Of a stretch of 64,000 nt of DNA, positions 4,353 to 43,460 are shown piece after piece. A program made the position numbers and the translations under genes. The notes beneath the pieces were generated by a model. The model saw nothing but the letters and a program-made list of their open reading frames with translations, ran no database searches and was not told the DNA's origin. Numbering within the stretch: the stretch's first letter is position 1; the number at the start of each line of letters is the position of its first letter. Source of the DNA: Candidatus Sulfotelmatobacter sp. (GTDB taxonomy: Bacteria > Acidobacteriota > Terriglobia > Terriglobales > Acidobacteriaceae); NCBI GenBank assembly GCA_035308125.1, contig DATGHF010000007.1:12863-76862 (forward strand). The letters run 5' to 3'.

Positions 4353-4354
4353 TC

Positions 4355-4421: not shown

Positions 4422-4799
4422 TTACCCCTTCTTCGGGCGCTTGGCGCCGTACTTCGAACGTCCCTGCATGCGGCCGGCGACGCCCACCGCGTCCAGCGTG
4501 CCGCGAATCACGTGATAACGCACGCCGGGCAGATCTTTCACGCGGCCCCCGCGGATCAGCACAATCGAGTGCTCCTGCAGGTTGTGGCCAACCCCTGGAA
4601 TATAGGTGGTCACTTCAATGCCATTGGTCAGCCGCACGCGCGCCACTTTGCGCAAAGCCGAGTTCGGCTTCTTCGGCGTCTGCGTGTACACGCGGGTGCA
4701 AACTCCGCGCTTCTGCGGACATCCCTGCAATGCCGGGCTGGCCGTCTTGTAACGTGGCCGCTTGCGGCCGTCACGCACCAATTGATTGAACGTAGGCAC
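4422..4799 (-). CDS. rpsL: 30S ribosomal protein S12
   Basis: 125-aa [42 protein letters not shown], typical S12. Confidence 0.97.
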
Positions 4800-5506: not shown

Positions 5507-7966
5507 ATGGGCAGGTTGCGCGCGCGGCGTCTGGCATGTGGGGTAGCGGTGGGCTGGTTGCTCATTCTCGGGGGCTGCGGCGGACACACGTTTGTATCGT
5601 CCTCTCCATTTCCGGCGAAGATTACCCTCACCCCGGGAGGCAGCACCTCGCTACAAATAGGCGGCACCGCCAGGTTTTCCGCCAGCGCCGTCAACAGCTC
5701 CAATTCCAACCTCAATATCGCGTTCACCTTCCAGTCCAGCGATACCAGCATTCTCAACTTTGCTCCGGGCGGACAGGCTTGCGGCGGCCGGTGGGACGCC
5801 GCGTTCATCGTATGCAATCCAGCCGCTTCCGGCGTAGTTCAGGTCACGGCCACGGCGGACGGTGTCGTCAGCCAGCCAACGCTGGTCTTCGTCCATCCGC
5901 CGATTGATAACATCGTCGTGACCGAGTTTCCCCCCTCGCCCCCGTACGTGACCCCAGTGCCGTGTATTTCCCAGGGGCAGACCATGACTTTGCAAGCCGC
6001 CGCCTACAGTCAGGGTGTGGACGTCACGCCTTCGGTCGGCCCCTTCACCTGGTCGGTAACGAATCCCAGTGTCGTGACCATCACTCCCATCGTGACCAAC
6101 CCGACTTTGGGCGTCGCCACCAATCAAGCTACCGCCACCGCGGCCGCGCCAGGCTTCACTCAGATTTTCGCCAGCGCCACCAACGTATTCAGCTCCGCGT
6201 TTCAGCAGTTCAACAGCAATGCGAATGCGCCGATCTGGAACTTCTTTGAAACCTGCCCGGTGCAGACCATCACGCTGCAACTCGGCCCCGCCGGTTCGCA
6301 GCAAAGCGGCCAGACCCTGTTCACCACCAACAAAGGAACCTCGCAGACGGTTACGGCGATTGTCTACGACGTGATCGGAAATCTGGTCGCCAAGCCATCC
6401 TTGACATGGACCTCGTCCCAGCCGCCATCGGTTTCAGCCCCGGCCTCTTGCAACGTGAGTCTCACCTGCTCGGTGAGCACGGCGAACCCGGGGGCCGGGA
6501 CCGTAACTGCTTCCTGCACTCCACCTTCCTGCAATGTGGGATTCCCGCTGGTCCCCGACAACGTTCTCAACGACCCTCAGCTGAGCAATCCCCAGCTGTA
6601 TGTTCCCGTCCCTGTATATGCCGGCACTGCGATCTCTGGCGTAGTCGATGGGGCAGCTGCAGGCACCGGTGTGCTCGCTTCCAGTCTGGACTGCGCTTCT
6701 AATTTTCAATGCTCTGTCGCTCTCTACAATGTCTCAACAGCTGCCAATCTGCCGGGCAGTCCGCTGACGCTTCCGACGGAACCAAATTCTCTGCTTTTCG
6801 ACGTGGCTGGCGACAAGGCGTACGTGGGAAGCGGTTTCGGCGCCTTTACCATGAATCCGTCAAATCTTGGCACTGCCAGCAGTCCCTTCGGCGGACTCGG
6901 CACTATTACCGGAAAGATCTTGGCGGTTTCAACCAATGGACAGCTGGCGGTTTTTTCCGACACCGTGCACACGCCCAACCAGGTTTACATCGTGAATAGC
7001 GTCAACGCTTCGTCCCCATCAATCAGCGATTTCGCGATTTCTGGCGCAGTCGCCGCCGCCATTTCACCGGACAACCTGAAGGCTTACATCCTGGCCTGCG
7101 TCCCCGGCGGGGGGCCGTGCGGTTCTGGGGGAAATACGCTTTTTGTGTATTCCACGCTGCAGGCCCTGCAAACCATCCCCTTGAGCGCGCCTGCCAGTGC
7201 CGTCACGTTCTCCTCGACGGGAGCGTTTGCCTTTGTGACCGGCGGCAGCACGAATTCCTCCGTCACCACTTTCAACACTTGCAACAACGCGCTCTCCACC
7301 CCACCGCCGCCGAACCCGCAGGTCCCCCTTGTTATCACCTTGCCGGCTGAGCCTTTGTTTCTTCAGGTCCTGCCGGCGGCTGGCGCACCCCCTCCGGTGA
7401 CGCAAGCTCTGCTCAACCCCCTGCCCACGGCCACAGGGCTAGACGTGCTCATCGCGCTCGACAATACCGGCATCGACCTTATCGCCACCGACGCAACCGT
7501 ACTCGGAGCGGGCGAACCGCCAACTCCGGAGCCGCCTTGCCCGCAGTACATCGAGCAGGCCTCGAATTCGACGCCCCCGCACGTCACTTTTCCGCCGCAG
7601 CACATCGGTTTCGGCCTGGGGACTTTTCATCCGATTAATTTTTTCGTCTCGCCTGACGGGAGCAGGGCCTACGTGGTGACCACCGACTTCAGCAGCATCC
7701 TGGTTTTCAATTTCAACACCGGCTCCCTCAGCGACAGCATTCCGCTCGTGGGCAATGCCATTCCCGTGAGCGCGTCCATGACCGTGGACGGAACCTTAAT
7801 CTACGTCGCCGCCAGTGATGGCATGCTGCACCAGGTGAACACCCTTTCGGCCGCAGATCTGCAACAGATTTCTTTCCCCAACCTGCCCGATGTGAACAAC
7901 CCCTTTTGCTCTTTCGGATCGACCACGCTCAGTTGCAACCTGAACCTGGTGTCGGTGAAACCTTAG
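5507..7966 (+). CDS. Large secreted lipoprotein with Ig-like repeats and a beta-propeller-like C-terminal region; function unknown
   Basis: ORF 5447..7966 trimmed to MGRLRARRLACGVAVGWLLILGGCGG (lipobox), with a GAGGAGAAAGG SD upstream. It has Thr/Ser/Pro-rich repeats, and the C-terminal segments (AYVVTTDFSSILVFNFNTGS, LIYVAASDGMLHQVN) resemble YVTN/propeller blades. Confidence 0.7.
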   Translation: MGRLRARRLACGVAVGWLLILGGCGGHTFVSSSPFPAKITLTPGGSTSLQIGGTARFSASAVNSSNSNLNIAFTFQSSDTSILNFAPGGQACGGRWDAAFIVCNPAASGVVQVTATADGVVSQPTLVFVHPPIDNIVVTEFPPSPPYVTPVPCISQGQTMTLQAAAYSQGVDVTPSVGPFTWSVTNPSVVTITPIVTNPTLGVATNQATATAAAPGFTQIFASATNVFSSAFQQFNSNANAPIWNFFETCPVQTITLQLGPAGSQQSGQTLFTTNKGTSQTVTAIVYDVIGNLVAKPSLTWTSSQPPSVSAPASCNVSLTCSVSTANPGAGTVTASCTPPSCNVGFPLVPDNVLNDPQLSNPQLYVPVPVYAGTAISGVVDGAAAGTGVLASSLDCASNFQCSVALYNVSTAANLPGSPLTLPTEPNSLLFDVAGDKAYVGSGFGAFTMNPSNLGTASSPFGGLGTITGKILAVSTNGQLAVFSDTVHTPNQVYIVNSVNASSPSISDFAISGAVAAAISPDNLKAYILACVPGGGPCGSGGNTLFVYSTLQALQTIPLSAPASAVTFSSTGAFAFVTGGSTNSSVTTFNTCNNALSTPPPPNPQVPLVITLPAEPLFLQVLPAAGAPPPVTQALLNPLPTATGLDVLIALDNTGIDLIATDATVLGAGEPPTPEPPCPQYIEQASNSTPPHVTFPPQHIGFGLGTFHPINFFVSPDGSRAYVVTTDFSSILVFNFNTGSLSDSIPLVGNAIPVSASMTVDGTLIYVAASDGMLHQVNTLSAADLQQISFPNLPDVNNPFCSFGSTTLSCNLNLVSVKP

Positions 7967-8010
7967 CGGATTGCTCGCCAGACTCCACCTCCGAAGTGTG
8001 GCATTTGATG

Positions 8011-8069
8011 GCCCGGCACGTAAGTGCCGGGTAAAGTGAAGCGATCAAGCGAGTCCCGACAGGGACGGC
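8011..8069. repeat. REP-like two-hairpin element (GCCCGGCACGTAAGTGCCGGGT ... AGTCCCGACAGGGACGG)
   Basis: Both hairpins read directly. The same architecture recurs inside a CDS at 30886-30968. Confidence 0.7.
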
Positions 8070-8122
8070 GCCCCGCTCTCTCTGCACTCTCTCAGGGCGA
8101 AGGGTGACTGAATCGGGAGGCC

Positions 8123-8539
8123 CTACGCGGGTTTTTCCAATTCCTTCCCGATGCTATCCAGCACGCCATTCAGAAAATGCACGGATTCCGGCGTTGAAAA
8201 CTTTCGCGCAATCTCCAGCGCTTCGTTGATCACGACGGCTCGCGGAGTTTCGCGGTAAGCCAGCAACTCCGCGACCGCCGCGCGCAAGAGATTGCGGTCG
8301 ACGGCGGCCATGCGTTCCATGCGCCAGTGTTCGGCATGACGTTCAATCAGGCCGTCGATTTCCCCCGCGCGGTCCGTAGCCACGCGGAACAGATCGTCGG
8401 CAAACCCGCGCACATCGGCGCTGGTAGTGCCATGCTCGCCCCAGAAGGTGCGCCGCACGTGATCGGCGTCCTGCTTCCCCAGGTCCGCCTGGAAAAGCAT
8501 CTGCAGAGCCATCTCGCGGGATTTGCGCCGAGTACCCAT
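8123..8539 (-). CDS. nusB: Transcription antitermination factor NusB
   Basis: 138-aa ORF MGTRRKSREMALQMLFQADL..., NusB-like, immediately downstream of ribH as in many bacteria. Confidence 0.9.
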   Translation of the reverse strand: MGTRRKSREMALQMLFQADLGKQDADHVRRTFWGEHGTTSADVRGFADDLFRVATDRAGEIDGLIERHAEHWRMERMAAVDRNLLRAAVAELLAYRETPRAVVINEALEIARKFSTPESVHFLNGVLDSIGKELEKPA

Positions 8540-8661
8540 GTGAGCTATCCGCCGTCAGCTTTCAGCCATCAGCTTGAGTCTACAAGAGGAAGCGGTCAGA
8601 GATGCGGATGATATCCAGGAATGGAGAGCCAGGCTAATGCGCGTTTTGCGAAATCTGAAGA

Positions 8662-9192
8662 TCACTTCTTTCTTTTGGACTTGATTTTGGCTTTGTCTTT
8701 GCTCTTGCCGACAGCTGAGACCTGAGGGCTGATAGCTTTCTTGAGCGACGCCATCTCCACCGCCGCCAGCGCCGCTTCGAATCCCTTGTTCCCCATTTTC
8801 AGGCCGGCGCGATCAATCGCCTGCTCCAGCGTCACGCAAGTGAGCACGCCGAACGCATGCGGAACGCCTGTTGCCTGCGCCGATTGCCCAATTCCCCGCG
8901 CGACCTCGTTCACGATCACGTCGTAGTGCGCCGTATCGCCTCGCAGAAGACAGCCTAAACAAATGACGGCATCATATTTCCCCGTCTCCGCCAACGTGCG
9001 CGACGCCAAAGGAATCTCAAACGCTCCCGGTACGCGCACGATCTCGATGTCTTTTTTTCTTGCTCCCGAACGCAGCAGTCCATCGTAAGCGCTCTGTAGC
9101 AGCCGCTCCGTGATAAAGGCGTTGAAGCGCGAAACCACGATGCCAAAACGTTTTCCGGCAGCGCTGAGACTTCCTTCCAGAGCCGGCAGCAC
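8662..9192 (-). CDS. ribH: 6,7-dimethyl-8-ribityllumazine synthase with a Lys-rich C-terminal tail
   Basis: Contains [20 protein letters not shown]...[10 protein letters not shown], the lumazine synthase signature. GTG start. The tail reads [18 protein letters not shown]. Confidence 0.92.
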
Positions 9193-29793: not shown

Positions 29794-31623
29794 TTGCGGG
29801 GAGGGACCTTGGGCCGCTCATCTGTTCTAACTGTCACTGCAGTATCCTGTCTTCTTTTCGGCGCAGCCGTCTGGCGGCTGAGTCCGCACGCTTCTTCCGC
29901 TTTCGCAGCCCAGGCTCAAACCCAGCCGCAAACGGCGAAGCCTGCCGTCGCCACTTCGGCGGCCGACGCGCAGCTTCGCCCCGTAAGTGCGAGCATCCCC
30001 ACATCCGCCGCGACCATCAAGCCCGCCAGCATTCCCGCGCTGCAGCTCACCGCAACGCCCGGCACTGAAATCTATACCGCGAAGCGTGGAGAAGCCATCC
30101 CGACCGTCGCCCACCGTTATCTGGGCCGCACGTCTTACTTAACGTCGTCCGAGCTCGCCCAAGCCATCCGCGCCGCGAATCATAAATCCGACGCCAGCAA
30201 CATTCTCAAGGCCAACGAACAAGTCATCATCCCGGGAATCCTCGCCGCGCCCATCGTCGAGAAGACCATCCCCGTCCCCAAAGATTTTGAAGTCCGCGCC
30301 ATCTACCTCACCGGTGTGATGGCGGCCAGCGATCATGGACTCCGCATCATCCGCCACTGGCGCGAAGTGGGCGGCAATGCCGTGGTCTTCGACATCAAAG
30401 ATTCCGACGGCAGCGTCAACATTCCCTTCGAGCACCCGCTGCTCGGCGAGCACAAAATTTATATTCACGACGTGCCGAAGTTCGTCCGCTTCCTGCATTC
30501 GCAGAACATGCACGCCATCGCCCGCATCGCCATCTTCCGCGACGAGCGCATGGTAGTCGAGCATCCCGACCTCGCCGTGCACTCCCGCAAAACCGGACAG
30601 CCCTGGCGCGAAAACGGCAAGCTGGTCTGGACCGATCCCTCGAACCCCAAGGTGCAGGACTATAACATCGCCCTGGCCAAACACGTAGCCCAGCTCGGTG
30701 CCGACGAAATCCAGTTCGACTACGTCCGATTCCCCGCCGAAGGCGACCAAAAAGACGCCGCCTTCGCCTTCCAGAAAGATCAGCAAAAAGATCAGCAGAA
30801 AGATCAGCAAAAAGACCAAGCGGCAGACAATCAACCCGAGACCAGTTCCTCGGCGAAAACGGAAACGCCGGAACCGCAGAACTCCAGTCCCGTAGGGACG
30901 GCAGATAATAGCCCGGGGCGTAAGCCCCGGGTAGACGGAAAAAAAGGGAACCAGTCCCGTAGGGACGGCACGAGCACCGCCGGCAAGCAAGTCCCCCCGC
31001 GCGGCCCCCAACGCACCGACGTAATCGCCGCCTTCCTGAAGAAGGCCTACACCGAACTCCACCCCACAGGCGTGCTCCTGAGCCTCGACGTTTTCGGCGT
31101 CATGGCCTGGCAGCGCCAGGTCGACCTCTCGCACACCGGACAAGACATCGTCGGCATGGCCAAATATTGCGACGTGCTCAGCCCCATGATCTACCCCAGC
31201 CACTTCTTCGGCATGGACAACATCCCCCACCCCGGCGACGAGCCCGCCCACTTCATTGGCGAATCCATGCAACGCTTCGAACTCATCACCCATCCCAACG
31301 GAGACCTCTCCAGCGGCGTGGTCATCCGCCCCTGGCTGCAAGCCTTCCGCTGGCGCACCAAGACCTATTCGCCGGAATACATCAAAATCCAAGTGGCCAC
31401 GGCGAAAGCCAAAGGCGGCATCGGATTCTTGTTCTGGAACGCCGCCAACGACTACAGCAAGCCCTACACCGCCATGCCCGAAATGCGCGCGGAAAATTTC
31501 AAGGCGAGTCCGAATGCGGCCGCTCCGAATGCAAAAGACGGCTCCAAAGACAATCCAAAATTCTTCCGCGGCGACGAACTCCCGGGCGTGACCATGAAAG
31601 CCAGCTTGACACCGGCGAACTAG
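29794..31623 (+). CDS. Putative glycoside hydrolase (DUF4015-type TIM barrel) with a LysM-like N-terminal region and a low-complexity insert
   Basis: IYLTGVMA...NAVVFDIKDSDG...IARIAIFRD...GADEIQFDYVRFP...SPMIYPSHF. The TTG at 29794 or the in-frame TTG at 29809 (after GGGAGGG) is the start. Confidence 0.75.
   Translation: MRGGTLGRSSVLTVTAVSCLLFGAAVWRLSPHASSAFAAQAQTQPQTAKPAVATSAADAQLRPVSASIPTSAATIKPASIPALQLTATPGTEIYTAKRGEAIPTVAHRYLGRTSYLTSSELAQAIRAANHKSDASNILKANEQVIIPGILAAPIVEKTIPVPKDFEVRAIYLTGVMAASDHGLRIIRHWREVGGNAVVFDIKDSDGSVNIPFEHPLLGEHKIYIHDVPKFVRFLHSQNMHAIARIAIFRDERMVVEHPDLAVHSRKTGQPWRENGKLVWTDPSNPKVQDYNIALAKHVAQLGADEIQFDYVRFPAEGDQKDAAFAFQKDQQKDQQKDQQKDQAADNQPETSSSAKTETPEPQNSSPVGTADNSPGRKPRVDGKKGNQSRRDGTSTAGKQVPPRGPQRTDVIAAFLKKAYTELHPTGVLLSLDVFGVMAWQRQVDLSHTGQDIVGMAKYCDVLSPMIYPSHFFGMDNIPHPGDEPAHFIGESMQRFELITHPNGDLSSGVVIRPWLQAFRWRTKTYSPEYIKIQVATAKAKGGIGFLFWNAANDYSKPYTAMPEMRAENFKASPNAAAPNAKDGSKDNPKFFRGDELPGVTMKASLTPAN
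30772..30816 (+). repeat. In-CDS tandem repeat encoding QKD(QQKD)3
   Basis: CAGAAAGAT followed by three 12-nt units (CAGCAAAAAGAT, CAGCAGAAAGAT, CAGCAAAAAGAC), read directly. Confidence 0.85.
30886..30968 (+). repeat. REP-like three-hairpin element lying in frame inside the hydrolase CDS
   Basis: AGTCCCGTAGGGACGG (30886-30901), GCCCGGGGCGTAAGCCCCGGG (30911-30931) and AGTCCCGTAGGGACGG (30953-30968). The same architecture occurs in the intergenic copy at 8011-8069. Confidence 0.75.
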
Positions 31624-31672
31624 TTCTCAAGTTCTCAGTTCTCAGTTCTCAGTTCTCGGTTCTCAGTTCCCA
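31623..31672. repeat. Heptamer microsatellite (GTTCTCA)x7, slightly degenerate
   Basis: Read directly. It starts on the last base of the hydrolase stop codon. Confidence 0.9.
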
Positions 31673-31696
31673 GTCAACCCGTCACCACAGCCAATG

Positions 31697-31722
31697 TGGG
31701 GACAGCCGCCCTCGGCTGTCCG
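31697..31722 (+). repeat. GGGGACAGCCGCCCTCGGCTGTCC hairpin element
   Basis: Read directly. Third member of the GGGACAGCCG family. Confidence 0.6.
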
Positions 31723-32016
31723 GCGGCCCAGGTGCATCGGGCCGCGGTGCATCAGCCAGAATGACCGCGCTCCTCCGATTCGCATCGCGCACAACGGTTC
31801 AGGTCTCTTCCCTTTTTCGTCTCTGTCAATTCCCACGGAATTGGCGCGTACCTCTTTCTTCGGTTACGAAGTTCTGTTACGAAATCCGAACACGATTCCG
31901 TTCTCGCACTTTTGTGATTGACAACCTCCCAACAAGTTGTCATGATTTGCGACGTTTTACGATGCTGATTGTAAAAGTATTCCCCATCGCGTCGGCCCTA
32001 CTTCTACACGCCCGCA

Positions 32017-32052
32017 CATGCTGCTGGTATTTCCAGGCAGCATGCGTTTTTG
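32017..32052 (+). promoter_or_regulatory. Leader hairpin CATGCTGC-N12-GCAGCATG followed by CGTTTTTG, 30 nt before the cupin lipoprotein start
   Basis: 8-bp perfect stem read directly, with a T-rich run after it. A TTGACA box lies at about 31919. Confidence 0.4.
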
Positions 32053-32080
32053 CCGCGGCGTAACTGAATCGAGGTGCCAC

Positions 32081-32542
32081 ATGTGCAGGGGCCCCTACCT
32101 CCGTATTTTTTGTTTCCTGCTTGTTCTTTGTTCAACTGCATGCACTTCCTGGAACCAGCGCGGGGCCAAAGGGATCGGCCTCCTGCCCAAGGCTGCGGCC
32201 GGTGAACAACACTTCTCAAGCTATCAGCCCAGCAATCCTTATGTGCAGCTCGGCGACGGCATTTACTATCGCAAAAGATATGAGGGAGCAGGACCGGCTG
32301 GCCTGCGCGTCGAAGTACGCGACCTGCTGGTTGGCCCCAGCCAGCACTCCGCCAAGGTGAGCCTGCCCGGTGCGGCCATCTGCGAGATGAACTCGGGCAG
32401 CGGAGTGCTGACCTCGGGAGATCAACCCCAGGAACTGCACCCTGGCGCTACTTTCTCTCTGCCCGAAGGGGCGAGCTTCTCCATCGAAAACAAATCCGAC
32501 ACGCCCATTTCCATACGGGCGTACCTGCTGCGGGCCGAATAG
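32081..32542 (+). CDS. Small lipoprotein with cupin-like C-terminal barrel
   Basis: GAGG SD. MCRGPYLRIFCFLLVLCSTAC lipobox. The C-terminal region GSGVLTSGDQPQELHPGATFSLPEGASFSIEN is cupin-like. Confidence 0.6.
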   Translation: MCRGPYLRIFCFLLVLCSTACTSWNQRGAKGIGLLPKAAAGEQHFSSYQPSNPYVQLGDGIYYRKRYEGAGPAGLRVEVRDLLVGPSQHSAKVSLPGAAICEMNSGSGVLTSGDQPQELHPGATFSLPEGASFSIENKSDTPISIRAYLLRAE

Positions 32543-32577
32543 AAGTGAAGACCAGCTTGTCACGGAGGACAGTCATT

Positions 32578-34170
32578 ATGTTTCCCACCTCTTCCTCTCA
32601 CAATGCTCGCCTGATCCTTGGGCTCGCAGGCACCCTGCTGCTGTGCGGCTGTTCGGCGGATTGGCCCGCCTTTCGCCACAATCCGCTGCGCACCGGGCAG
32701 CAGCTGAATACCGGTCCGCTCACCGATCCGGCGAAAGTGGCGAAATTAGCCGTGGGCTGGACGTTCCCCACAGGAGTCACGCTGACCCCGGCGGCGGGGC
32801 CCTTCCGAGCTTCGCCCGTGGTTTACAAAGGCGTGGTCTTCATCGGAAACTCAAACGGATTCTTCTACGCCATCAACGCCTCGGACGGCAGTCTCAAGTG
32901 GCAATACCCTCCCGTCGGCGGCCAATCCCTCACCTCGACCTTTACTTGCAATCCTTCGAGCGAGGGCATTGCCTCCAGCGCGGCCATCGCTGACGTCGGA
33001 AGCCACACCGTCGTGATTTTCGGCGCGCCGGACCGTTCGATCGGCGCCGGCCTGGGCAGTGGCAGATTGTTCGCCCTTGACGTCAGCTCCGGCGCAGAAA
33101 TCTGGAAGTCTCCGGAAATTGCCGTGCTCCTGAGCGACGGCGTCACTCACCAGCAAATCGGATACTCCTCACCGCTGGTCTTCAACGATCACGTTTACAT
33201 CGGCATCGGCGATCATTGTGACGATCCCATCCAGCAAGGCAAAGTGGTTGCCGTCCACCTGAGCGACGGTACCATCGATGCCGGCTTCAGCTTCACCAGC
33301 ACCGGCCCTCCGCGCGGCGGAGGCGTCTGGGGTTCGGTCGCGGGCTGGCTGGACGCGGTCTACACCACCACCGGCAACTCCAATATCGGCGCTCCTGAAC
33401 CGGTTCCCGATCATGCGCTCAGCATGTTGCGGCTCGATTCCAATACCGGCAACATTATTTGGAGCTGGAAGCCCGTTCCCTACGACATGGATAACGATCC
33501 GGATTGGAGCACCACCCCGAGCGTTGTCCTGGCAAGTTGCGGCACTCTGGTCGCGTCCACTCCCAAGGACGGTTGGACCTGGGCCCTCAATGCCGGTACC
33601 GCCACTCCCGGCCCGGCCAGTGTGCAATGGGCGTTCCCGCCCGGCCCCTGGACCACGGCCGGGTTCAACACCCTAGACGGCACTTTTCACGGTGACACGC
33701 GCTACCTTCGGCCGGGCGCCGTGTGGGATGACGTCTACATCACTCAGACCGGAGGATACCCCGTCATCAGCGATGTCTCCGAAGGGTTTCATCACCTTTA
33801 TGCGCTCAATTCCTGCGCCTCTGATGCAGACCGTGTCCGCTGGATCGAAGATGTTCCCAGCGCTTCTGGTTCTGAATACGATTTGGGCCCGCCCACGGTC
33901 ACTCACGGAATCATTTTCGTCGGCACCGACGGCGGACACCTGGTCGCCCTCGCCGATCCCAGCATCTATCCCGCCGCCGGATGGCGCTGCAACAATCCGA
34001 CCGTCACCAACGCAGCCTGCGTAGCCAGCGGATTCTCTCTGGTTCCTGAGCCCGCTGTAATCGCCAATGTCGATCTCGGCGCCGGATCCATTACCACCGA
34101 ACCCGCCATTGTGGGAGATCCAGTCTATGTTTCCACCGAAGGCGGCAAAGTCTTTATGCTCAAACCTTAA
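32578..34170 (+). CDS. PQQ-like (BamB-type) beta-propeller repeat lipoprotein
   Basis: GGAGG SD. LLLCGC lipobox. It has repeated motifs such as ASPVVYKGVVFIGNSNGFFYAINASDGSLKWQY, typical of PQQ-like propeller blades. Confidence 0.8.
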   Translation: MFPTSSSHNARLILGLAGTLLLCGCSADWPAFRHNPLRTGQQLNTGPLTDPAKVAKLAVGWTFPTGVTLTPAAGPFRASPVVYKGVVFIGNSNGFFYAINASDGSLKWQYPPVGGQSLTSTFTCNPSSEGIASSAAIADVGSHTVVIFGAPDRSIGAGLGSGRLFALDVSSGAEIWKSPEIAVLLSDGVTHQQIGYSSPLVFNDHVYIGIGDHCDDPIQQGKVVAVHLSDGTIDAGFSFTSTGPPRGGGVWGSVAGWLDAVYTTTGNSNIGAPEPVPDHALSMLRLDSNTGNIIWSWKPVPYDMDNDPDWSTTPSVVLASCGTLVASTPKDGWTWALNAGTATPGPASVQWAFPPGPWTTAGFNTLDGTFHGDTRYLRPGAVWDDVYITQTGGYPVISDVSEGFHHLYALNSCASDADRVRWIEDVPSASGSEYDLGPPTVTHGIIFVGTDGGHLVALADPSIYPAAGWRCNNPTVTNAACVASGFSLVPEPAVIANVDLGAGSITTEPAIVGDPVYVSTEGGKVFMLKP

Positions 34171-34257
34171 CGATTGCTGGAGAGTGATCGATAGGGAGTG
34201 AACGAATATCTGTCAGTCACAATCTGTCAACCGTGATCCGACAACTCGGAGCGTCTT

Positions 34258-34686
34258 ATGAATCCCAGATTTATGCCAAAGCCCGCTCTCCTGGCAACCG
34301 CGGTTCTGCTCGCAGTCTCATCCTGTGCCCAGGTGGCTGCCCAGACTCCGCCCGACTCCAAGCCCACCGCCGAGAACGCGAATGCCTTCGCCAAGACCGA
34401 TCGCTTCGCGGGCAAGGCGCTTCTCAAGTCGAAGAACGGACGCCCGCAAGAAGTTTCGGCTGTGGTTCAAAACTGGGCCCTGCATGGACGGATCAAGGTC
34501 GAGAAGTTTCCGGAACACAATTTTCTGGTCGTCTACCTGCACTCCGGAAAAGTGACCGCCACCATCGACGGCAAACCCGAGCCCCACAAAGGCGGCGACT
34601 TCTGGACCGTCCCCGCCGGCGCCACCATGTCCCTTCAAGTCACCAGCGAGTCGGCCCTGCTGCAAACCCTGGCCCTGAAAAAATAA
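34258..34686 (+). CDS. Small secreted cupin-like protein, paralogous in pattern to 32081..32542
   Basis: Has a signal peptide. The segment HSGKVTATIDGKPEPHKGGDFWTVPAGATMSLQV parallels the first cupin-like protein. Confidence 0.6.
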   Translation: MNPRFMPKPALLATAVLLAVSSCAQVAAQTPPDSKPTAENANAFAKTDRFAGKALLKSKNGRPQEVSAVVQNWALHGRIKVEKFPEHNFLVVYLHSGKVTATIDGKPEPHKGGDFWTVPAGATMSLQVTSESALLQTLALKK

Positions 34687-34878
34687 TCCACGCGGAAGCA
34701 GCCACCACCACCGTCACCAAAAACGCGTTGTCATCCTGAAGCGCGCGCTCTTTGCCCGCTGAAAGCCTGCCCTGAGCGAAGTCGAAGGGGACCTGAGCGA
34801 GCCGCGCGAAGCGTCGCGCACTTTGCGACGCAATAATTCGCGCGTTCGGCTCGCATCCGCATCGCTCTTTGCCGGGGT

Positions 34879-34941
34879 CCACCCCCACCCCACCCCCGTG
34901 CCCCCGCCCGCCCCACAAAAGCCCCTTGCCACCCCTCCCCC
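34879..34941 (-). other. G-quadruplex-prone tract (nine runs of 3-5 G on the minus strand)
   Basis: C-runs counted directly on the plus strand: C5, C4, C5, C5, C3, C4, C4, C4, C5 within 63 nt. Confidence 0.7.
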
Positions 34942-35116
34942 ACAGGTGTAAAAAAGGACCCACTGCGAGGGGGTCGCGGCCACACCAGGCCTCGGCCCTT
35001 TTTTTGTTTGGCTTCATGGGTCAGCTGAAATAGGAGAGCTGACTCACCTAGGCTGTCACCTTTTCCGTCGCATCCGTCTCTGCGATAATCGCCGACAGTT
35101 AAAGAGGAAACTGAAG

Positions 35117-36502
35117 ATGGCACGAACGCATGGTGATGCTAACGGCTCATTCCAGAGGATTTCAGTTATCGTTCCCAAGAATCCCTTTATCAAGGCGGAG
35201 TTGCAGAGCGTCCGTCTCTGTCTGGCCGCGCTCGACGTCGCCCAGTTGATGGAGTGGTGGCCGGGGAAGCCACACTCACCACACAGGAACCCCAATAAGG
35301 TTCGAACCATCCAGAGGTCACTCGATTGGAAGCGCGTAGCCCAAATCGCAGCGTACCTGCTCCAGCGCGAGGTCACGGACGCGCCGGAAAAACTCGCGCA
35401 ATATTTCGAGGCTTTCTACGGAACCGAGGCGGGCGAGCCTGGAAGGGAGTGGCCACCGAAACTGCCAAACGTCGCGAAATTCCAGAGGAGTGGCTATCCG
35501 ACCTTCTCCAATGTATTACTGCATGTGAACGGAGCAAAGCTAGATGAACAATCCAGAGAAGAAGGTGTCGGAACTCTTGAATTCGACGAGGACAGCGCCC
35601 AACTCAACTTCTCGGTGATTGACGGTCAACACCGCGTCAACGGGGCTTACTTCGCAGTATGTCTCCTTCGTGAATCCGACCCCCAAGCAAAATGGGAGAT
35701 TCCCGCGGAGATCTTCATGGATCTGGACGAAGCGGGCGCACCTCCGCGACGACAGGCTCAAATCTTCATAGACGTCAATTTCTATCAGAAGAAGGTGGAC
35801 CGTTCCCTTGTAGCCGATCTCTTCCCGACGGCGCGAGGCGCACGCGAGCCACTAGACAATAAGGAACGCGCACAGGATCTCGGGCGCAAGCTCATGCTGG
35901 AGACTGGGCCTCTAGTGGGCATGGTGCAAATCCCAGGAATCAGGTTCGGTGTGAAGGATGTGGTTACCCTCTCGACGCTGAATTCAGCTATAGAGGATGT
36001 TATAAGCGATCTTCGCTCCGCTGGGCTCCAGAGTCTTGAGGCACAGGCTGAGTTCATCGCCCAATGCCTTGATGCGTGGCTCGATGCCACCGGAAGAAAA
36101 GAAGACGTGTCCGAATCCGACACCCTCGACGGCGAGAACGTTGCCTATCAGGGTCGCGCGATAGTGTCGTTTCTGACCCTAGTGCCCGCCTGCATTCTTG
36201 AGCTTAAACGGGGGAAGCTATCACTTGTCTCCGACAGGGCAACAGAGCACCTTACTGATTGGGCCAAGGGAACCATGAAGCGGGCACGCCTGCTAGACCG
36301 GAGCAACCGATTTCTGGCTAAGGGCGAATTCAAGCATAAGGGCTATTTGGGCAGCGGAGGAATAGCGAGATTCCGCGACACGCTTTGGGCCGCAGCAGCA
36401 ACGAGGAGACAACTACCTAGCCGCCTCAAAGCCGAAAGACTCGAGGAACTCGCCGCACAGAGCCGAGCTAAGGTCAGGTCGGAGCTAGCGGCGATTGTAT
36501 GA
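35117..36502 (+). CDS. DGQHR-domain protein (DndB-like, ParB/Srx-fold superfamily)
   Basis: GAGGA SD at 35104-35108. The literal motif FSVIDGQHRVNG is present, plus the downstream AQIFIDVNFYQKKV and upstream RTIQRSLDWKRVAQIAAYLL, as in DndB-type proteins. Confidence 0.8.
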   Translation: MARTHGDANGSFQRISVIVPKNPFIKAELQSVRLCLAALDVAQLMEWWPGKPHSPHRNPNKVRTIQRSLDWKRVAQIAAYLLQREVTDAPEKLAQYFEAFYGTEAGEPGREWPPKLPNVAKFQRSGYPTFSNVLLHVNGAKLDEQSREEGVGTLEFDEDSAQLNFSVIDGQHRVNGAYFAVCLLRESDPQAKWEIPAEIFMDLDEAGAPPRRQAQIFIDVNFYQKKVDRSLVADLFPTARGAREPLDNKERAQDLGRKLMLETGPLVGMVQIPGIRFGVKDVVTLSTLNSAIEDVISDLRSAGLQSLEAQAEFIAQCLDAWLDATGRKEDVSESDTLDGENVAYQGRAIVSFLTLVPACILELKRGKLSLVSDRATEHLTDWAKGTMKRARLLDRSNRFLAKGEFKHKGYLGSGGIARFRDTLWAAAATRRQLPSRLKAERLEELAAQSRAKVRSELAAIV

Positions 36503-37356
36503 GAAAGATCGACGCGAACCTCGCAGCCCATCTAGCGGAAGCATTCGCGCCGCTGAACACCGAGGCGGCAGCACATGCATTTCCGCCCACTGCCTCCCTG
36601 TCGATGACCTTGGACAGGGCGATCCCAACCGGCGTAACAATGGTCGTACCGCATGCGAAAACCCTTGCGATCACAAAAATGTTTACCACCGCAGCAGTGG
36701 ATATGTGGATGCGCGGAGTTCATAGCTTTCTCATCTCGACCTCACTGACAGACGTAAGCCCCATCTGGGCGTCCGTGACGGGTTATTACTCAAGCCACTA
36801 CACAGTCCGCTCAATCGCCCACCTCCTAGGCTTTTTTCAGCTGTTCAACAGAAAGAGAATCGTTCGTCTGGAATACGCGAATAGCAGTTTCGTCTGCGCG
36901 TTCGATCCGAAGACTAGTCACGACCGCGAACATCGCTTTTATTGGAACGTCGTAAAGTCAAACCCACTCTTTGCCGGGGATCCGTTTTTTACGCAAAATC
37001 TTCCCGGCGACGAGTCAGACGTATCACATCGCGACCGAGCAAACTACGCGGATCACCTCCCAACATTTCCTGCGTTCAGGCCACTCGATGCGGAGGCGGT
37101 CAAGAACCGCATCGAAAGAATCTCTGACATCGAATTTAAGGCTCCCCCAATTCCAAGAGTCAGCCTCTATCCTGATGTCGAATCAGTCCAAGTGATCGCC
37201 TACCATCGCCTCGTACGGTTTCGCGACTTGGTTGACGCTGCTGTGGGCACGAGTAACAGATTCTGGAGGGTCCACCGGGACCCTCCTTGGGCGAGAGACT
37301 TTATGGATTTTCAGCTTATCGAGGAACCAACACTGCGTGCCGAGTTCACACTGTAG
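36499..37356 (+). CDS. Uncharacterised 285-aa protein; possible HEPN-like Rx5H motif
   Basis: ATGA start/stop overlap with the upstream gene. It appears mainly alpha-helical by eye. RANYADH is encoded at 37036-37056. I recognise no family. Confidence 0.6.
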   Translation: MRKIDANLAAHLAEAFAPLNTEAAAHAFPPTASLSMTLDRAIPTGVTMVVPHAKTLAITKMFTTAAVDMWMRGVHSFLISTSLTDVSPIWASVTGYYSSHYTVRSIAHLLGFFQLFNRKRIVRLEYANSSFVCAFDPKTSHDREHRFYWNVVKSNPLFAGDPFFTQNLPGDESDVSHRDRANYADHLPTFPAFRPLDAEAVKNRIERISDIEFKAPPIPRVSLYPDVESVQVIAYHRLVRFRDLVDAAVGTSNRFWRVHRDPPWARDFMDFQLIEEPTLRAEFTL

Positions 37357-38463
37357 ATGAAATACATGGGCTCCAAGCGATGGATGCTACGAAACGGCCT
37401 CGGCGACCTGATTGATCGAGAGGTGAAGAACTCCGATCGATTCGTCGATTTATTTGCCGGGTCCGGAGCGGTCTCGACCCACGTGGCTAGAAAGTACAAC
37501 ATTCCCGTCGCAGCCTACGACCTTCAGACATTCAGCATAGCTTTATCCCGTGCGGTGCTGGGCCGGGAGTCAGAAGTTGAGGGGGAGTCGCTGTGGGCTG
37601 ACTGGTACAGACGCGCGGAAAATCTCCAGAAGTCACTGCGCCCTCCGTCCACAGCGGTATTGAATAAGATGACTATCAATTTGCATCGCGAGTGGTCCGC
37701 AAATCAGGGTTGGACAGTCACAAGGGCGTACGGTGGCTATTACTTCAGCGCGCCTCAGGCCGTGTGGCTAGACGCACTGATGCAGGGTCTGCCGACACAT
37801 GAGCCCGCTAGGAGTGTGGCCCTCGCAGCGCTAATCTCCGCCGCGAGCCAGTGCGCCGCCGCGCCCGGCCACACCGCGCAACCGTTCCAACCGACGCGCT
37901 CCGCAAAACCTTACCTCGTGGGAGCATGGCGGCAAGACCTAGTAGGCCGCTGCAAAAAGGAGCTATCGGCGATCTCTAAGCAGTATGCGAGAAGAACCGG
38001 GCACGCCGAGGTCGCTGATGCAAACGATATCGCGACGCTTCTTACCGATCGGGATCTCGCCTTTATCGATCCACCGTACTCCGGCGTGCACTACAGCCGC
38101 TTTTACCACGTGCTTGAAACGCTGGCGCGTGGTGCATGCGGCGCCGTATCTGGCACCGGTCGCTACCCCCCTAGCGCTGAACGACCGCGATCGAAGTACA
38201 GCTTAAAATCCGGGTCATCAAGCGCGCTGGAAGATCTGCTCAAAGCGATCTCGTCCCGACGCGCAAAGGCCATTCTTACGTTTCCCCAACGCAAATGCTC
38301 AAACGGTCTCTCCGGAAAGGTCGTGATCGAACTGGCCAGTGCGTATTTCACCACTGAGCAACATTGGGTCGCGTCGAAATTCAGCACTCTCGGAGGAAAC
38401 AATGACCATAGGGATGCGCGACGGTCAACGCGTGAACTTATCCTAGTACTGAGTCCACGCTGA
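37357..38463 (+). CDS. D12-class (Dam-like) N6-adenine DNA methyltransferase
   Basis: YMGSKRWML (Dam N-terminal motif), VDLFAGSGAVS (FxGxG AdoMet motif) and AFIDPPYSG (DPPY catalytic motif). The ATG directly follows the upstream TAG. Confidence 0.8.
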   Translation: MKYMGSKRWMLRNGLGDLIDREVKNSDRFVDLFAGSGAVSTHVARKYNIPVAAYDLQTFSIALSRAVLGRESEVEGESLWADWYRRAENLQKSLRPPSTAVLNKMTINLHREWSANQGWTVTRAYGGYYFSAPQAVWLDALMQGLPTHEPARSVALAALISAASQCAAAPGHTAQPFQPTRSAKPYLVGAWRQDLVGRCKKELSAISKQYARRTGHAEVADANDIATLLTDRDLAFIDPPYSGVHYSRFYHVLETLARGACGAVSGTGRYPPSAERPRSKYSLKSGSSSALEDLLKAISSRRAKAILTFPQRKCSNGLSGKVVIELASAYFTTEQHWVASKFSTLGGNNDHRDARRSTRELILVLSPR

Positions 38464-38665
38464 TGGCGATAGTCGGGGACTCTGACATCACTCCCTAAGG
38501 CGAGACCTCCCTCAAGCCCTCCAATCTCAAAACGCTACACCTCGAGAGGCCGTTTTTGGCGTGGCTTTTTGACCACACTTGCTGCCGGTATTTCGGCAAT
38601 CGTCCCTAAGTCCATCATGCGGACGCGTTTGCCGTGTTGACGCTTTTTGCCGCTTTTCCACAGAT

Positions 38666-38714: not shown

Positions 38715-38823
38715 ATTTCGCGATTTCGGTGTGGCTAGAAGCTAGCAGCTAGAAGCTGAGAACCGTCCCCACCGCTGACAACCGCCCTCACCCCCTCGGC
38801 TATAATGTTCACAAGGAGTACGC

Positions 38824-40400: not shown

Positions 40401-40508
40401 GGGTCGAGTCGGTTAAAGCGGGGAAGCCGCCCGAAGGGGCGGCTTTCTTTTTTGAACTCAAGCCTCAACTGGGACGCTAACTGTTCAGCGCGCTCGCGCT
40501 GGCGCGTT

Positions 40509-40919
40509 TCATTTCCGCACCACACCAGTTCCGCACCACACCAACTCCACGTCGTATTTCTTGAAGGCCCGGTCCGAAGTGAGGATTGCCATGTCTTCGG
40601 CGATGGCCTGGGCGATGAGCAATCGATCGAAGGGGTCGGCGTGATGCGGGGGAAGATCGTAAACTTTGACCGCGTGGGTGAGGGTAATCGTGAGGGGCCG
40701 CAAGCCTTGTTTCGTCATGAAGGCTGGCACGGAAGTGGATGGAGGCCCCGGAAACGTCAGCTTCCCTAGCCGCATCTTGATGCTCAGCTCCCACGCGGTC
40801 ACAGCGGAAAGATATATTTCGTGGCGGCCGTCGGCGATGATCTTTCTCCCCGCGTCACCGATTCGGTCGACTTCATCCGTGCTCCAAAGCCAAACCGCGG
40901 TGTCGAGGAGATACTTCAC
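40509..40919 (-). CDS. vapC: PIN-domain toxin VapC
   Basis: MKYLLDTAVWLW...DPFDRLLIAQA...LTSDRAF, the PIN acidic residue pattern. There is a 4-nt overlap with the upstream antitoxin. Confidence 0.85.
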   Translation of the reverse strand: MKYLLDTAVWLWSTDEVDRIGDAGRKIIADGRHEIYLSAVTAWELSIKMRLGKLTFPGPPSTSVPAFMTKQGLRPLTITLTHAVKVYDLPPHHADPFDRLLIAQAIAEDMAILTSDRAFKKYDVELVWCGTGVVRK

Positions 40920-41194
40920 CGGCGTTTCCGCCTGCGCGGCTTTTCGAGTTTGGGAAGGTCCTCGCCGTAGAACTGTTTCAACAAGTCATCGGGCAAAGGC
41001 GCGTCGAAGTCGTCGGCGACCCAAACCTGACCGCGCGCAAATCCCAGCGGGCGGGCTTTGTTCTTGTCCGGCTCGATGGGAACCAGGCGGGCCACGGGCA
41101 CGCCGGAGCGCGCGATGGTGACTTCCTCTCCCGCCGCGACGCGCTGCAGCAGGCGGGAGAGATGAGTCTTGGCCTCGTGGATGTTGAATTCCAT
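40916..41194 (-). CDS. Phd/YefM-type antitoxin
   Basis: MEFNIHEAKTHLSRLLQRVAAGEEVTIARSGVPVARLVP, typical of a prevent-host-death family N-terminus. Confidence 0.8.
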   Translation of the reverse strand: MEFNIHEAKTHLSRLLQRVAAGEEVTIARSGVPVARLVPIEPDKNKARPLGFARGQVWVADDFDAPLPDDLLKQFYGEDLPKLEKPRRRKRR

Positions 41195-41365
41195 GGGGCT
41201 AGGATAGACTAAGTCTATAGACTAAGTCCAGTCGATGATACAAGTGACCAAATACGGCTGGCTCAAGTGCTGCGGCTGGCGCTCCACGGCGGCGGCGCCT
41301 GAGATCCCTCCGCCCCGATGAAAAACGCGGCGTCGGGATGACGAGAGCGTTTTGGGGTCTGCGCT

Positions 41366-41833
41366 TTACTTATTGCGCGCGTCGAGGCCGCGGTTATCGA
41401 GGCTCCACGGCCCTGATCCGAACTGCGTGATCAGCAGGGCGCCGCCCAGCATCGATACGTTCTTGAAAAACATGATCATCTGGATCTGCTGCGTCATGGG
41501 GTCGGCGACGCCCCAGAACTTGTGCATACCCGGCGTGATCAGGGCGAGAAACAGGACGATCAACCATGCCCCGATTTTGGCGCGATAGCCCAGCAGGACG
41601 GAAAGTCCTCCGACGAGTGCCAGGGCACCGCTCAACGGCACTGCGATCCCAGCCATGGGCACGCCCTGCGACGCGGCGTAAGCGATGGTCTGGCTCAGGA
41701 AGTGACGCGGGCCAGACATGATGAAAATCAGAGCGAACAGGAAGCGGCCTAGCAGGATGACGAAGCCGGATGCTGCGGCTGAAACGGGGATTGCTTGGGA
41801 TCGGGTGGGAAGGGTGGAACTGGTGGCTGCCAT
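41366..41833 (-). CDS. DoxX-family membrane protein
   Basis: AAGGAGA SD before the ATG at 41833. Contains LGRFLFALIFIMSG...GLSVLLGYRAKIGAWLI...FFKNVSMLGGALL. Confidence 0.8.
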   Translation of the reverse strand: MAATSSTLPTRSQAIPVSAAASGFVILLGRFLFALIFIMSGPRHFLSQTIAYAASQGVPMAGIAVPLSGALALVGGLSVLLGYRAKIGAWLIVLFLALITPGMHKFWGVADPMTQQIQMIMFFKNVSMLGGALLITQFGSGPWSLDNRGLDARNK

Positions 41834-42101
41834 TTTGGTTTCTCCTTGTTGAATTTGGGACGGCATGGGTTTCGTAAGAAATTCGGTCGAACGAAACGAA
41901 ACCGGCCTCCCGAAACTTTTCTAGCGGGCGAATCCAGACCCGCCGGGGCTAAAGCCCGTGCAAATTGCAAATGACTCTACGCGGCGCTCGAAGCGCCGCT
42001 CTTCCACGTCACCGCCGGCCTTCTTCTCGGCGCTGGGCACGACCGCTTCTGCAAGGCTGCTTGCCTTTATCGCGGCGCTGAAAGCGCTGCGCGGCCCTAC
42101 G

Positions 42102-42749
42102 TCAACGACTATGCGCGGGATCGTGCGCGGCGACGGAGCGGTCTTGCGCGGCAGCGTGCAGTTGTGCGATAGCTGCGGCACGCGAAGGTTCGGCCAGCTC
42201 TCCTCCGGGCTTCTGATTTTCGGCGTGGATGAAGGTGACGTCGGTCAATCCAATGAAGGCGAGGATGTGCCGCAGATACGGTTCCTGATAGTCATATTGT
42301 GCGGTCGGGGTGCTGGGGCGATAAGAGCCCCCGCGCGAGGTAATGACAATGACTTGCTTGCCCTGCAGCAGTCCCGCGGGACCGTTTGCCCCCCAGAGAA
42401 CGGTGCGGCCGACGCGCACCACCTGATCGATCCACGCTTTTAACGGAGCGGAGATGGTGAAGTTGTACATAGGCGCGCCGATCACGATGGTGTCCGCGGC
42501 CAGCAATTCTTCCACCAGCGCGTCGGAAACGGCGAGCGTCTCCTGTTGCGCCGGAGTGCGCTTCGCCGGATCGGTGTGAATAGCGATCGCCCACTCGTCG
42601 GTGATGAGCGGGAGGTGCGTGGTGGACAAGTCGCGTTCAATCACTTCTCCGGCAGGGTTCTCCTTTTTCCAGGATTCGACAAAGCGTTGCGTGAGCTGCC
42701 GCGAAACTGAGTTCCGGCGGGCGCTGGAATCGATACGAAGCAATTTCAT
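42102..42749 (-). CDS. azoR: FMN-dependent NADH-azoreductase
   Basis: MKLLRIDSSARRNSVSRQLT...IVIGAPMYNFTISAPLKAWIDQVVRVGRT. Confidence 0.88.
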   Translation of the reverse strand: MKLLRIDSSARRNSVSRQLTQRFVESWKKENPAGEVIERDLSTTHLPLITDEWAIAIHTDPAKRTPAQQETLAVSDALVEELLAADTIVIGAPMYNFTISAPLKAWIDQVVRVGRTVLWGANGPAGLLQGKQVIVITSRGGSYRPSTPTAQYDYQEPYLRHILAFIGLTDVTFIHAENQKPGGELAEPSRAAAIAQLHAAAQDRSVAAHDPAHSR

Positions 42750-43028
42750 GAGACCCTCCTGCCTTCAGTCTGGGTTAGATCAGGCCAGCTTCGCTTTGGT
42801 TACAATAAATAACTACTAGCTCTTTACATAGCAGGAACTTTATAGTAACCTAGTATCAAATCGGTGCAAGGCTTGCCGTCGACGGCACTTCAGCAGCGGC
42901 AGGTTGCATAGGTCGTTCGGGCCGCAAAAAACGCGGCCCTCAGGATGACCGATCAACCACGACGACCGGTCAAACACTAAGGGCGGATCGACCACCAAGG
43001 ACACGAAGTTACACGAAGGAAATCGACT

Positions 43029-43460
43029 ATGCCACGACGCTCTGTGAAATCCGCTGCTCCTTCTCCTTGCGCCATCGGCGAGCTGCTGGAGGTGCTGGCG
43101 CGGCCCTGGACGCTGCATATTCTTTGGGCCCTGAGCCACGAGGGGCCGATGCGGTTTGGAGTGCTGCGGCGGCAGGTGGATGGGATTTCGTCGCGAGTGC
43201 TGACCGAGCGGCTGCGGACTCTGGAAGAAAAGGGATTCGTGTTTCGGGATTACCAGCCGACGATTCCTCCGGCGGTGACCTACGGAATTACTGAGCGCAT
43301 GAAGGATATTGAGAAGGTGCTGGCGCAGCTGGAAGGATTGTCGCGCAAGTGGCACGGGCAACCGGGTGGCACCCATGGCGGGGGCGTGGCGGCGCCGGCT
43401 TCAGAGGCGGCGCGGAAACTTAAGGCTGTGTCCAAGCACGAGGCGGAGGCTGTTACCTAG
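43029..43460 (+). CDS. HxlR-family transcriptional regulator
   Basis: CAIGELLEVLARPWTLHILWAL...MRFGVLRRQVDGISSRVLTERLRTLEEKGFV. It is divergent from azoR. Confidence 0.88.
   Translation: MPRRSVKSAAPSPCAIGELLEVLARPWTLHILWALSHEGPMRFGVLRRQVDGISSRVLTERLRTLEEKGFVFRDYQPTIPPAVTYGITERMKDIEKVLAQLEGLSRKWHGQPGGTHGGGVAAPASEAARKLKAVSKHEAEAVT

Follow-up and report, generated by a model that had tools for sequence, protein, structure and literature searches.

The window analysed here is a stretch of 64,000 nucleotides (nt) from Candidatus Sulfotelmatobacter sp. (Acidobacteriota; GenBank assembly GCA_035308125.1, contig DATGHF010000007.1, positions 12,863 to 76,862 of the forward strand), and its subject is a cassette of three tightly packed open reading frames (ORFs) on the + strand. 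ORF1 (35117-36502, +) encodes a DGQHR-domain protein of the DndB/ParB-Srx superfamily with 461 amino acids (aa), ORF2 (36499-37356, +) a 285-aa protein of unrecognised family and fold, and ORF3 (37357-38463, +) a 368-aa divergent alpha-type D12 N6-adenine DNA methyltransferase. The first two are the constant core components of the cassette and the third is its exchangeable component. An earlier note, made from the letters alone, had singled out this trio as a possible new defence or modification module. The ORF check returned the same coordinates, together with the ATGA overlap of the ORF1 stop and the ORF2 start (36499-36502) and the ORF2 stop TAG (37354-37356) that abuts the ORF3 ATG (37357). 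The motifs quoted in that note were found in the translations, namely VIDGQHRVNG and QIFIDVNFYQKK in ORF1, and YMGSKRW, DLFAGSGAVS and FIDPPYSG in ORF3. A Shine-Dalgarno-like AGAGGA can be read at 35103-35108 (+), 8 nt before the ORF1 ATG. These ORFs are real genes and not chance ORFs, because homologues are numerous (842 matches for ORF1, 495 for ORF2 and 3788 for ORF3, the last mostly from the broad D12 class); the identical three proteins were already called in a Candidatus Sulfotelmatobacter metagenome-assembled genome (MAG).

The placement of ORF1 in the DGQHR superfamily was borne out by matches to TIGR03187 (92.1 bits, cutoff 58.85; 4.7e-26) and to the Pfam family PF14072, DndB (49 bits, cutoff 29.1; 5.9e-13). 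The DGQHR domain, a sister of DUF262, has been defined by a QR pair, the DGQHR pentapeptide and an FxxxN motif (PMC4619093). ORF1 carries all three signatures, Q66-R67, DGQHR at 169-173 and F217-IDV-N221, and they are invariant in 30 homologues from several phyla, whose mean column identity is 71%; the median pairwise identity across phyla is 60%, with a range of 45-80%. ORF1 is not DndB proper, since it reaches 17.4 bits against the equivalog model TIGR03233 with its cutoff of 328, and DndB is also its sole match in PADLOC, a weak one (7.2e-05). Neither DUF262 (PF03235) nor DUF1524/HNH (PF07510) is listed by Pfam at E <= 1 for ORF1 or ORF2. The profile search of ORF1 against PDB sequences gave no match, and its AlphaFold2 (AF2) model is poor (predicted template modelling score, pTM, 0.58), with nothing at E < 0.9 in a Foldseek search of the PDB, a search that a model of this quality makes uninformative. 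DndB-like proteins bind ATP/GTP (bioRxiv 10.1101/2025.10.10.680097). By analogy with DndB, DpdB and the DUF262 domain of GmrSD/SspE, ORF1 is most likely a DNA-binding sensor or switch of ParB/Srx fold that depends on a nucleoside triphosphate (NTP).

The partner protein ORF2 has no significant match in Pfam, NCBIfam, PADLOC (best 0.055), PHROGs or PDB sequences. A profile built from 34 homologues and run against 1.84 billion representative proteins collected 110 clusters, all of the same compact family, and neither remote relatives nor informative fusions were found among these representatives. The AF2 model of ORF2 is of good internal consistency (predicted local distance difference test, pLDDT, 83.7; pTM 0.88), and its best Foldseek hits, at E 1.8 in the PDB and 0.56 in BFVD, do not amount to a match; this means that the modelled fold is not recognised and is not proof of a new fold. 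The alignment has invariant residues at H75, GYYSSH 95-100, R104, H108, R143-E144-H145, D161, R178 and D185, and its invariant positions are rich in His, Arg, Asp, Glu and Trp. Such conserved polar and aromatic residues suggest an enzyme or a tight binding surface. The alignment contains no known nuclease signature, nor the GmrD motifs (E/D)HxxPQ, LGNLxLL and NxxFxxKK, and ORF2 has no HNH match; hhalign detected no relation between ORF2 and ORF1. ORF2 is most likely either the effector (a nuclease or nickase) or a reader of the site or its methylation.

One genome per GTDB species was scanned, which yielded 54 loci with a relative of ORF2, all of them in MAGs. The carriers belong to at least 14 lineages, including Acidobacteriota, Eisenbacteria, Planctomycetota (with Brocadiia and Scalindua), Verrucomicrobiota, Alphaproteobacteria, Bacteroidota, Patescibacteria, Elusimicrobia, Nitrospirota, Desulfobacterota, Zixibacteria, Firestonebacteria, Marinimicrobia and FCPU426. 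They are mostly uncultured groups of soil, sediment and groundwater, and the cassette has spread among them by horizontal transfer. An ORF1 homologue, or a remnant of one, lies immediately upstream of ORF2 on the same strand at every scanned locus with enough flank, and the stop and start of the two genes overlap or nearly abut across loci. The pairwise identities of ORF1 and those of ORF2 are correlated with r = 0.87.

ORF3 falls in the D12 methyltransferases, as the earlier note had it, with 52 bits against PF02086 (cutoff 22; 1.1e-13) and 8.5e-20 against the PADLOC model MTase_II. Its motifs are in the alpha order, motif I (DLFAGSG, residues 31-37) preceding motif IV (DPPY, 226-229), and it stays below the cutoff of the Dam family (TIGR00571, 22.2 bits against 114.85). 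A methylase of the ORF3 type stands directly downstream of the pair at 37 of the 54 loci; the others have a Dam-family methylase (8), an MT-A70 methylase (5), no methylase (3) or a contig end (1). The identities of the alternative partners were confirmed by Pfam and NCBIfam, and the eight Dam-family partners pass TIGR00571 with 214-242 bits. For the Dam-type partner at locus L053, the nearest solved structure is the GATC methylase DpnM (1.5e-43), and E. coli Dam is also close. The alternative methylases occur on either strand, in one case upstream of the ORF1-ORF2 pair. In a neighbour-joining tree of ORF1 plus ORF2, the loci with Dam-family and MT-A70 partners are scattered among those of the ORF3 type, which implies at least six swaps; thus L025, with a Dam partner, and L022, with an ORF3-type partner, have ORF1 proteins that are 79% and ORF2 proteins that are 77% identical. 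The conservation of the trio as a neighbourhood, on which the earlier note had staked its proposal, therefore stood in part: the ORF1-ORF2 pair is what is kept, methylases of three families take each other's place, and three intact pairs have none beside them. Because methylase families replace one another on the ORF1+ORF2 tree, what is selected appears to be ORF1-ORF2 in company with whichever methylase can set the right N6-methyladenine (m6A) mark.

Decay of the cassette is unequal among its genes. ORF1 and/or ORF2 are split, disrupted by an insertion sequence (IS) or eroded beside an intact methylase in L015, L040 and L060. In L055 and L059 the methylase is fragmented along with ORF1/ORF2, all three genes being fragmented in L055. 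The IS insertion in L055 and the heavy erosion in L059 and L060 are real. Preferential decay of the non-methylase genes is typical of restriction-modification (R-M).

Genomic context is the ground on which a function can be proposed. With a probability of roughly 0.55, we take the cassette to be a horizontally mobile, R-M-like immunity module keyed to N6-adenine methylation, in which methylation would mark self and ORF1-ORF2 would act on unmarked DNA. What leads to this reading is a pattern like that of an R-M-like selfish or defence cassette, namely the invariant, co-evolving pair, the replaceable m6A methylase and the patchy distribution across phyla at high identity, together with insertion in variable regions, occasional defence neighbours and the preferential decay of non-methylase genes. 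In the proposed mechanism, the invariant core would consist of ORF1, a DGQHR protein of predicted ParB/Srx fold serving as NTP-dependent DNA sensor or switch, and the translationally coupled, co-evolving ORF2, the two presumably acting as a complex. The third gene would label self DNA with m6A at a defined site. A methylase of any family could do so if it makes the same mark, which would explain the replacement of ORF3-type, Dam-family and MT-A70 enzymes by each other. ORF1-ORF2 would engage and damage DNA without the mark, and marked host DNA would be spared. The leading candidate for the target site is GATC, because the Dam-family partners resemble GATC methylases. All of the computational tests by which the earlier note thought its idea could be refuted were run, and none refuted it: the families were placed, the neighbourhood recurs in 54 genomes and PADLOC has no match for it.

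The same three genes could also be read as a regulated orphan methylase with an epigenetic role, ORF1 being a DndB-like, NTP-modulated transcriptional regulator or a loader that holds methylation down or directs it, and ORF2 an accessory, with no restriction involved. Precedents exist for each side of such a role, as DndB has been described as repressing the dnd operon in a manner modulated by ATP (PMC4507180; PMC10853773), DpdB is an ATPase assisting a modification enzyme (PMC10164549), and fusions of ParB-fold domains to DNA methylases are common in phages and archaea (bioRxiv 10.1101/2025.10.10.680097); the lack of a recognised nuclease in ORF1 and ORF2 would also fit. A regulator should, however, co-evolve with its methylase or its operator, whereas the methylase here changes family, strand and position while ORF1 remains 45-80% identical and ORF2 always comes along. 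No conserved non-coding DNA was found between the loci, the pair persists without a methylase, and the methylase persists when the pair decays. We therefore consider regulation of an orphan methylase improbable.

Several observations weigh against an R-M-like module. Family, PDB-sequence and Foldseek searches recognised no nuclease fold or motif in ORF1 or ORF2, so that 'restriction' would be without an identified catalytic basis. The cassette of the window is not in a defence island, its neighbours being housekeeping genes. GATC is mildly depleted in the window (observed/expected 0.87, 375 sites). ORF3 is split beside an intact ORF1-ORF2 pair in L039, and intact pairs stand without an adjacent methylase in L008/L001, L010 and L013; a classical restriction enzyme without its methylase should kill the cell unless an equivalent methylase is encoded elsewhere in the genome. 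Remnants of a methylase were sought beside the solo pairs L008, L010 and L013, and none was present as far as the flank reaches. The sequences of L008 (labelled Eisenbacteria) and L010 (Acidoferrum) are sisters, and their ORF1 proteins are 77% identical; therefore the methylase was lost once, and the solo pair was then maintained and transferred. Several of the frameshifted loci are in MFD-series MAG assemblies. If these are long-read (nanopore) assemblies, as is probable, some of the frameshifts may be sequencing errors, and isolated ones are to be read with care.

The solo pairs are better explained by another reading, in which the cassette would work as SspE does: m6A of the host would license or tune the system by stimulating the NTPase activity of ORF1, which would switch ORF2, and loss of the methylase would disarm the pair and not kill the host. 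L008, L010 and L013 and the split ORF3 of L039 are easily accommodated, provided that a host lacking the mark comes to no harm from the pair. The kinship of the DGQHR domain with its sister DUF262 (PMC4619093) speaks in the same direction, and the characterised SspE and GmrSD/BrxU proteins are all described as sensing modified DNA (PMC8092258, PMC13251355); the action of phosphorothioate on the DUF262 domain of SspE would be the model for that of m6A on ORF1. Repeated swaps of non-homologous methylases around a pair that alone is conserved are nevertheless the classic signature of protective methylation, as in Type II systems, and the modification genes of Ssp and Dnd are not interchangeable. 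ORF1 is, moreover, not detectably a DUF262 protein, and ORF2 lacks DUF1524/HNH motifs. On balance, sensing of the SspE kind seems rather unlikely, and protective methylation remains the preferred reading.

The cassette might also belong to the mobile elements themselves, as a phage- or plasmid-borne anti-restriction or self-protection device in which the methylase and the ParB-like pair would protect or partition the element's own DNA. ParB-methylase combinations are enriched in prophages (bioRxiv 10.1101/2025.10.10.680097), IS elements flank the cassette in L004, and on one IMG/VR contig (L146, IMGVR_UViG_3300048597_000653; 2588-5206 and 6614-8804) an 872-aa TrwC-like relaxase, judged by eye from its N-terminal sequence, lies 1.4 kb upstream of the pair; an integrative conjugative element is a possible identity for this 'viral' contig. 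Homologues of ORF2 were, however, absent from 50,697 phage records and 72,556 plasmid records, and only this one of 2.9 million IMG/VR contigs contains ORF2. Most of the loci are on chromosomes, in the company of housekeeping genes and without phage or conjugation genes in the vicinity. Like the regulatory explanation, self-protection is hard to reconcile with the swapping of methylases and with the distribution in the databases, and we consider it very improbable. Weak tblastn matches of ORF1 in plasmids were set aside, as they proved to be a canonical DndB or a short protein with DGQHR whose context is unrelated. The genes beside the plasmid DndB are presumably dndC and dndD, to judge from their N-terminal sequences.

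The window itself gives evidence of mobility. The earlier note had placed the cassette between unrelated housekeeping-type genes, and its neighbours are indeed a PQQ-type (pyrroloquinoline quinone) beta-propeller gene, a class IV aminotransferase gene, DinB and VapBC. The 80 nearest ilvE loci (79-96% identity) were compared, and all of them lack the three cassette genes, the PQQ gene and the 142-aa ORF that follows it. In L064, the closest relative with enough flank, the positions corresponding to ~31617 and ~38555 of the window are only ~180 bp apart, and the cassette therefore lies in a strain-specific segment of ~6.9 kb (31640-38540, no strand). Homology to the relatives resumes ~75 bp past the ORF3 stop, which is the right edge of the segment. 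Besides the cassette, this segment contains a 153-aa ORF (~32081-32542), the PQQ-type beta-propeller gene (32545-34170) and the 142-aa ORF (34258-34686), which has no family match. A heptamer tandem array, (AGTTCTC) x7.4, lies at 31622-31674, exactly at the left junction. In the relatives L073 and L076 the site is occupied by ~2 kb of different DNA; it therefore looks like an insertion hot spot.

The base composition and flanks of the cassette were also as the earlier note had described them, with one reservation. GC content is 0.53-0.57 over most of the block compared with ~0.60-0.62 around it, and in the second half of ORF3 it is at the level of the neighbours (0.60-0.62). The flanks measure 430 nt and 360 nt; their description as 'repeat-rich' is weakly true, as the runs in them, of low complexity or in tandem, are short: (CCACCC)3 at 34879-34897, (GCTAGAA)4 at 38734-38762 and one 19-nt doublet. 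Terminal direct or inverted repeats, attachment (att) sites and tRNA genes were sought around the cassette, and none of note was found. In the upstream flank of ORF1, ~70 nt at 34788-34858 (...CCTGAGCGAAGTCGAAGGGGACCTGAGCG...) are 83% identical to positions 8537-8606 of L007, another acidobacterial MAG, in which the copy is on the opposite strand and downstream of the cassette. This looks like a dispersed intergenic repeat of Acidobacteria, resembling repetitive extragenic palindromes or miniature inverted-repeat transposable elements (REP/MITE), which lies outside the cassette. A second strain-variable segment was noticed further on, where L064 jumps from window position 40454 to 43412; the stretch missing in L064 includes a PIN (VapC)/PhdYeFM antitoxin pair at 40509-41194.

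When the loci are compared with one another, similarity of their DNA sets in just after the start of ORF1 and stops before the end of ORF3, no shared non-coding DNA or flanks were found, and the neighbourhood is different at every locus. Genes of Type I/III/IIG R-M systems (ResIII, N6_Mtase, Eco57I, Methylase_S, HSDR_N) lie upstream in at least five loci. At six loci the methylase is directly followed, on the same strand, by a DUF4357 gene matching the PADLOC candidate PDC-S14 (2.8e-85), a candidate single-gene system. The encoded proteins have ~285-290 aa and a C-terminal DUF4357/RAMA-like domain; the genes are located at L053 7656-8510, L024 7093-7962, L029 8077-8949 and L046 3047-3907, and probable further ones, recognised from size and position, at L017 2182-3060 and L036 8041-8913. 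Either the PDC-S14-like gene is a fourth component present in some cassettes, or it is a defence gene that shares their location. Defence-gene neighbours are found in a minority of loci. Directly downstream of the split-ORF3 cassette of L039, an ORF at 8021-8515 starts with ...YSGFKQNVVPLFQRPYTWSDKQW..., which may resemble the N-terminus of DUF262 (GmrSD-like) proteins. Elsewhere in the window, one protein matches many PADLOC models of PD-T4-6 (a Ser/Thr kinase; best 7.7e-93), and mad6 (7e-72) and MkoA (7.5e-36) each have a single matching protein; generic housekeeping homologues of kinase or helicase type are the probable explanation. Depletion of palindromes was rejected as evidence of a target site because it is weak, GATC standing at 0.87 and the lowest, GTAC, at 0.68.

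Analogous operons are present in cultured bacteria. On the plasmid pRt932 of Rhizobium tumorigenes (L143; NZ_CP117262.1 446924-450849), which was reached through its ORF3-type methylase (46% identical to ORF3), a DGQHR protein, an unrelated 423-aa protein and this methylase are encoded together; a 503-aa unrecognised gene comes next, and a recombinase is nearby. On a 30,952-bp plasmid of Zymomonas mobilis (L144; NC_013788.1 4808-8470), a homologue of the Rhizobium middle protein stands between a DGQHR protein and a Dam-family methylase. The four Zymomonas matches are all 30,952-bp records and are common to strains CP4 and NRRL B-12526; a DUF4433 and macro domain pair (DarTG-like) lies 2 kb downstream of the operon. 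PADLOC matched neither the Rhizobium nor the Zymomonas operon. In a clade-specific island of M. abscessus subsp. massiliense, a DGQHR protein adjoins a DpnIIA-type methylase (PMC9248903). The order of a DGQHR protein, an unrecognised protein and an ORF3-type or Dam-family methylase is thus shared by the Rhizobium and Zymomonas operons and the M. abscessus GL1.2/1.3 island with the cassette, whereas the Rhizobium and Zymomonas DGQHR proteins align to ORF1 over a core of ~100 residues only and there is no relation between ORF2 and their middle proteins (423-440 aa). The alternation of methylases is repeated here in a second, independent family. The SMRT (single-molecule real-time) methylome of Zymomonas ZM4 contains CAGN4CTG, GAAGN7TCC and GANTC only (PMC8432527). 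It could not be used as evidence, since the modern ZM4 plasmids, including pZM32, are without the operon.

It is possible, though doubtful, that pairs of DGQHR proteins and adenine methylases form a broad, unrecognised class of NTP-driven immunity, in which a ParB/Srx clamp or switch would read m6A and control family-specific effectors. ORF2 and the unrelated 423-440-aa proteins of Rhizobium and Zymomonas would then be the variable effectors, with the fold of ORF2 unrepresented in the PDB; the class would be the counterpart, for base methylation, of SspE with its sensing of phosphorothioate, and restriction would have a new enzymatic solution. More narrowly, if ORF1-ORF2 restricts or senses unmethylated DNA, a ParB/Srx NTPase and a partner whose fold is unrecognised would together make up a restriction machinery. 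This would give the large and vaguely defined DGQHR/DndB family a role outside phosphorothioation, would explain the DGQHR and Dam pairs of M. abscessus, Zymomonas and Rhizobium, so far noted without comment, and could yield a new methylation-sensitive DNA enzyme. The Rhizobium and Zymomonas operons, being in cultured strains, are experimentally tractable.

The earlier note could not match the trio to a named system, and neither could we: PADLOC v2.0, with its known and candidate systems and component hidden Markov models, leaves ORF1-ORF2 unmatched. This was the sole defence catalogue tested, and it would miss the module because neither non-methylase gene matches its system models. A description of such a module was not found in the literature under DGQHR, DndB-like, or DndB with Dam or R-M. 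The superfamilies of ORF1 and ORF3 are known and the logic is R-M-like; the ORF1-ORF2 core has no counterpart among the PADLOC systems or in the papers found, and ORF2 is an orphan family.

With DndB of Dnd phosphorothioation and DpdB of the Dpd 7-deazaguanine system, the cassette shares a homologous DGQHR domain, location in modification or defence operons and, if ORF1 behaves as its homologues do, NTP binding. It differs from them in relying on base methylation by an ordinary methylase, and no dndCDE, dpdA or ssp genes were found within 10 kb on either side of it, nor any dnd gene among the best 25 of the 39 PADLOC families matched by the rest of the window; ORF1 is, besides, far under the DndB equivalog cutoff (17 bits against 328). 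GmrSD, BrxU and SspE resemble it in combining a domain that has QR, DGQ(H/Q)R and FxxxN, and that in ORF1 is predicted to be of ParB/Srx fold, with a second module, and in their link to DNA modification; GmrS and GmrD can, moreover, be separate, co-evolving proteins (PMC4619093). In contrast to them, ORF1 matches DGQHR/DndB models and not DUF262, and ORF2 has neither the GmrD motifs nor HNH; modified DNA is what these systems attack or sense, and no adenine methylase is encoded alongside them. From Type II R-M, for example the GATC systems DpnII and MboI, the cassette differs in having no detectable PD-(D/E)XK, HNH, GIY-YIG, PLD or other nuclease fold, in a putative restriction part made of two proteins, a DGQHR protein of predicted ParB/Srx fold and a family without known relatives, and in that some of its pairs are without an adjacent methylase. 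Type II systems and the cassette are alike in that both are compact mobile cassettes of an m6A methylase with non-methylase genes, in that the methylase is exchangeable between non-homologous classes and an orphan methylase outlasts its decaying partners, and in that the Dam-family partners of the cassette are nearest to DpnM, pointing to GATC.

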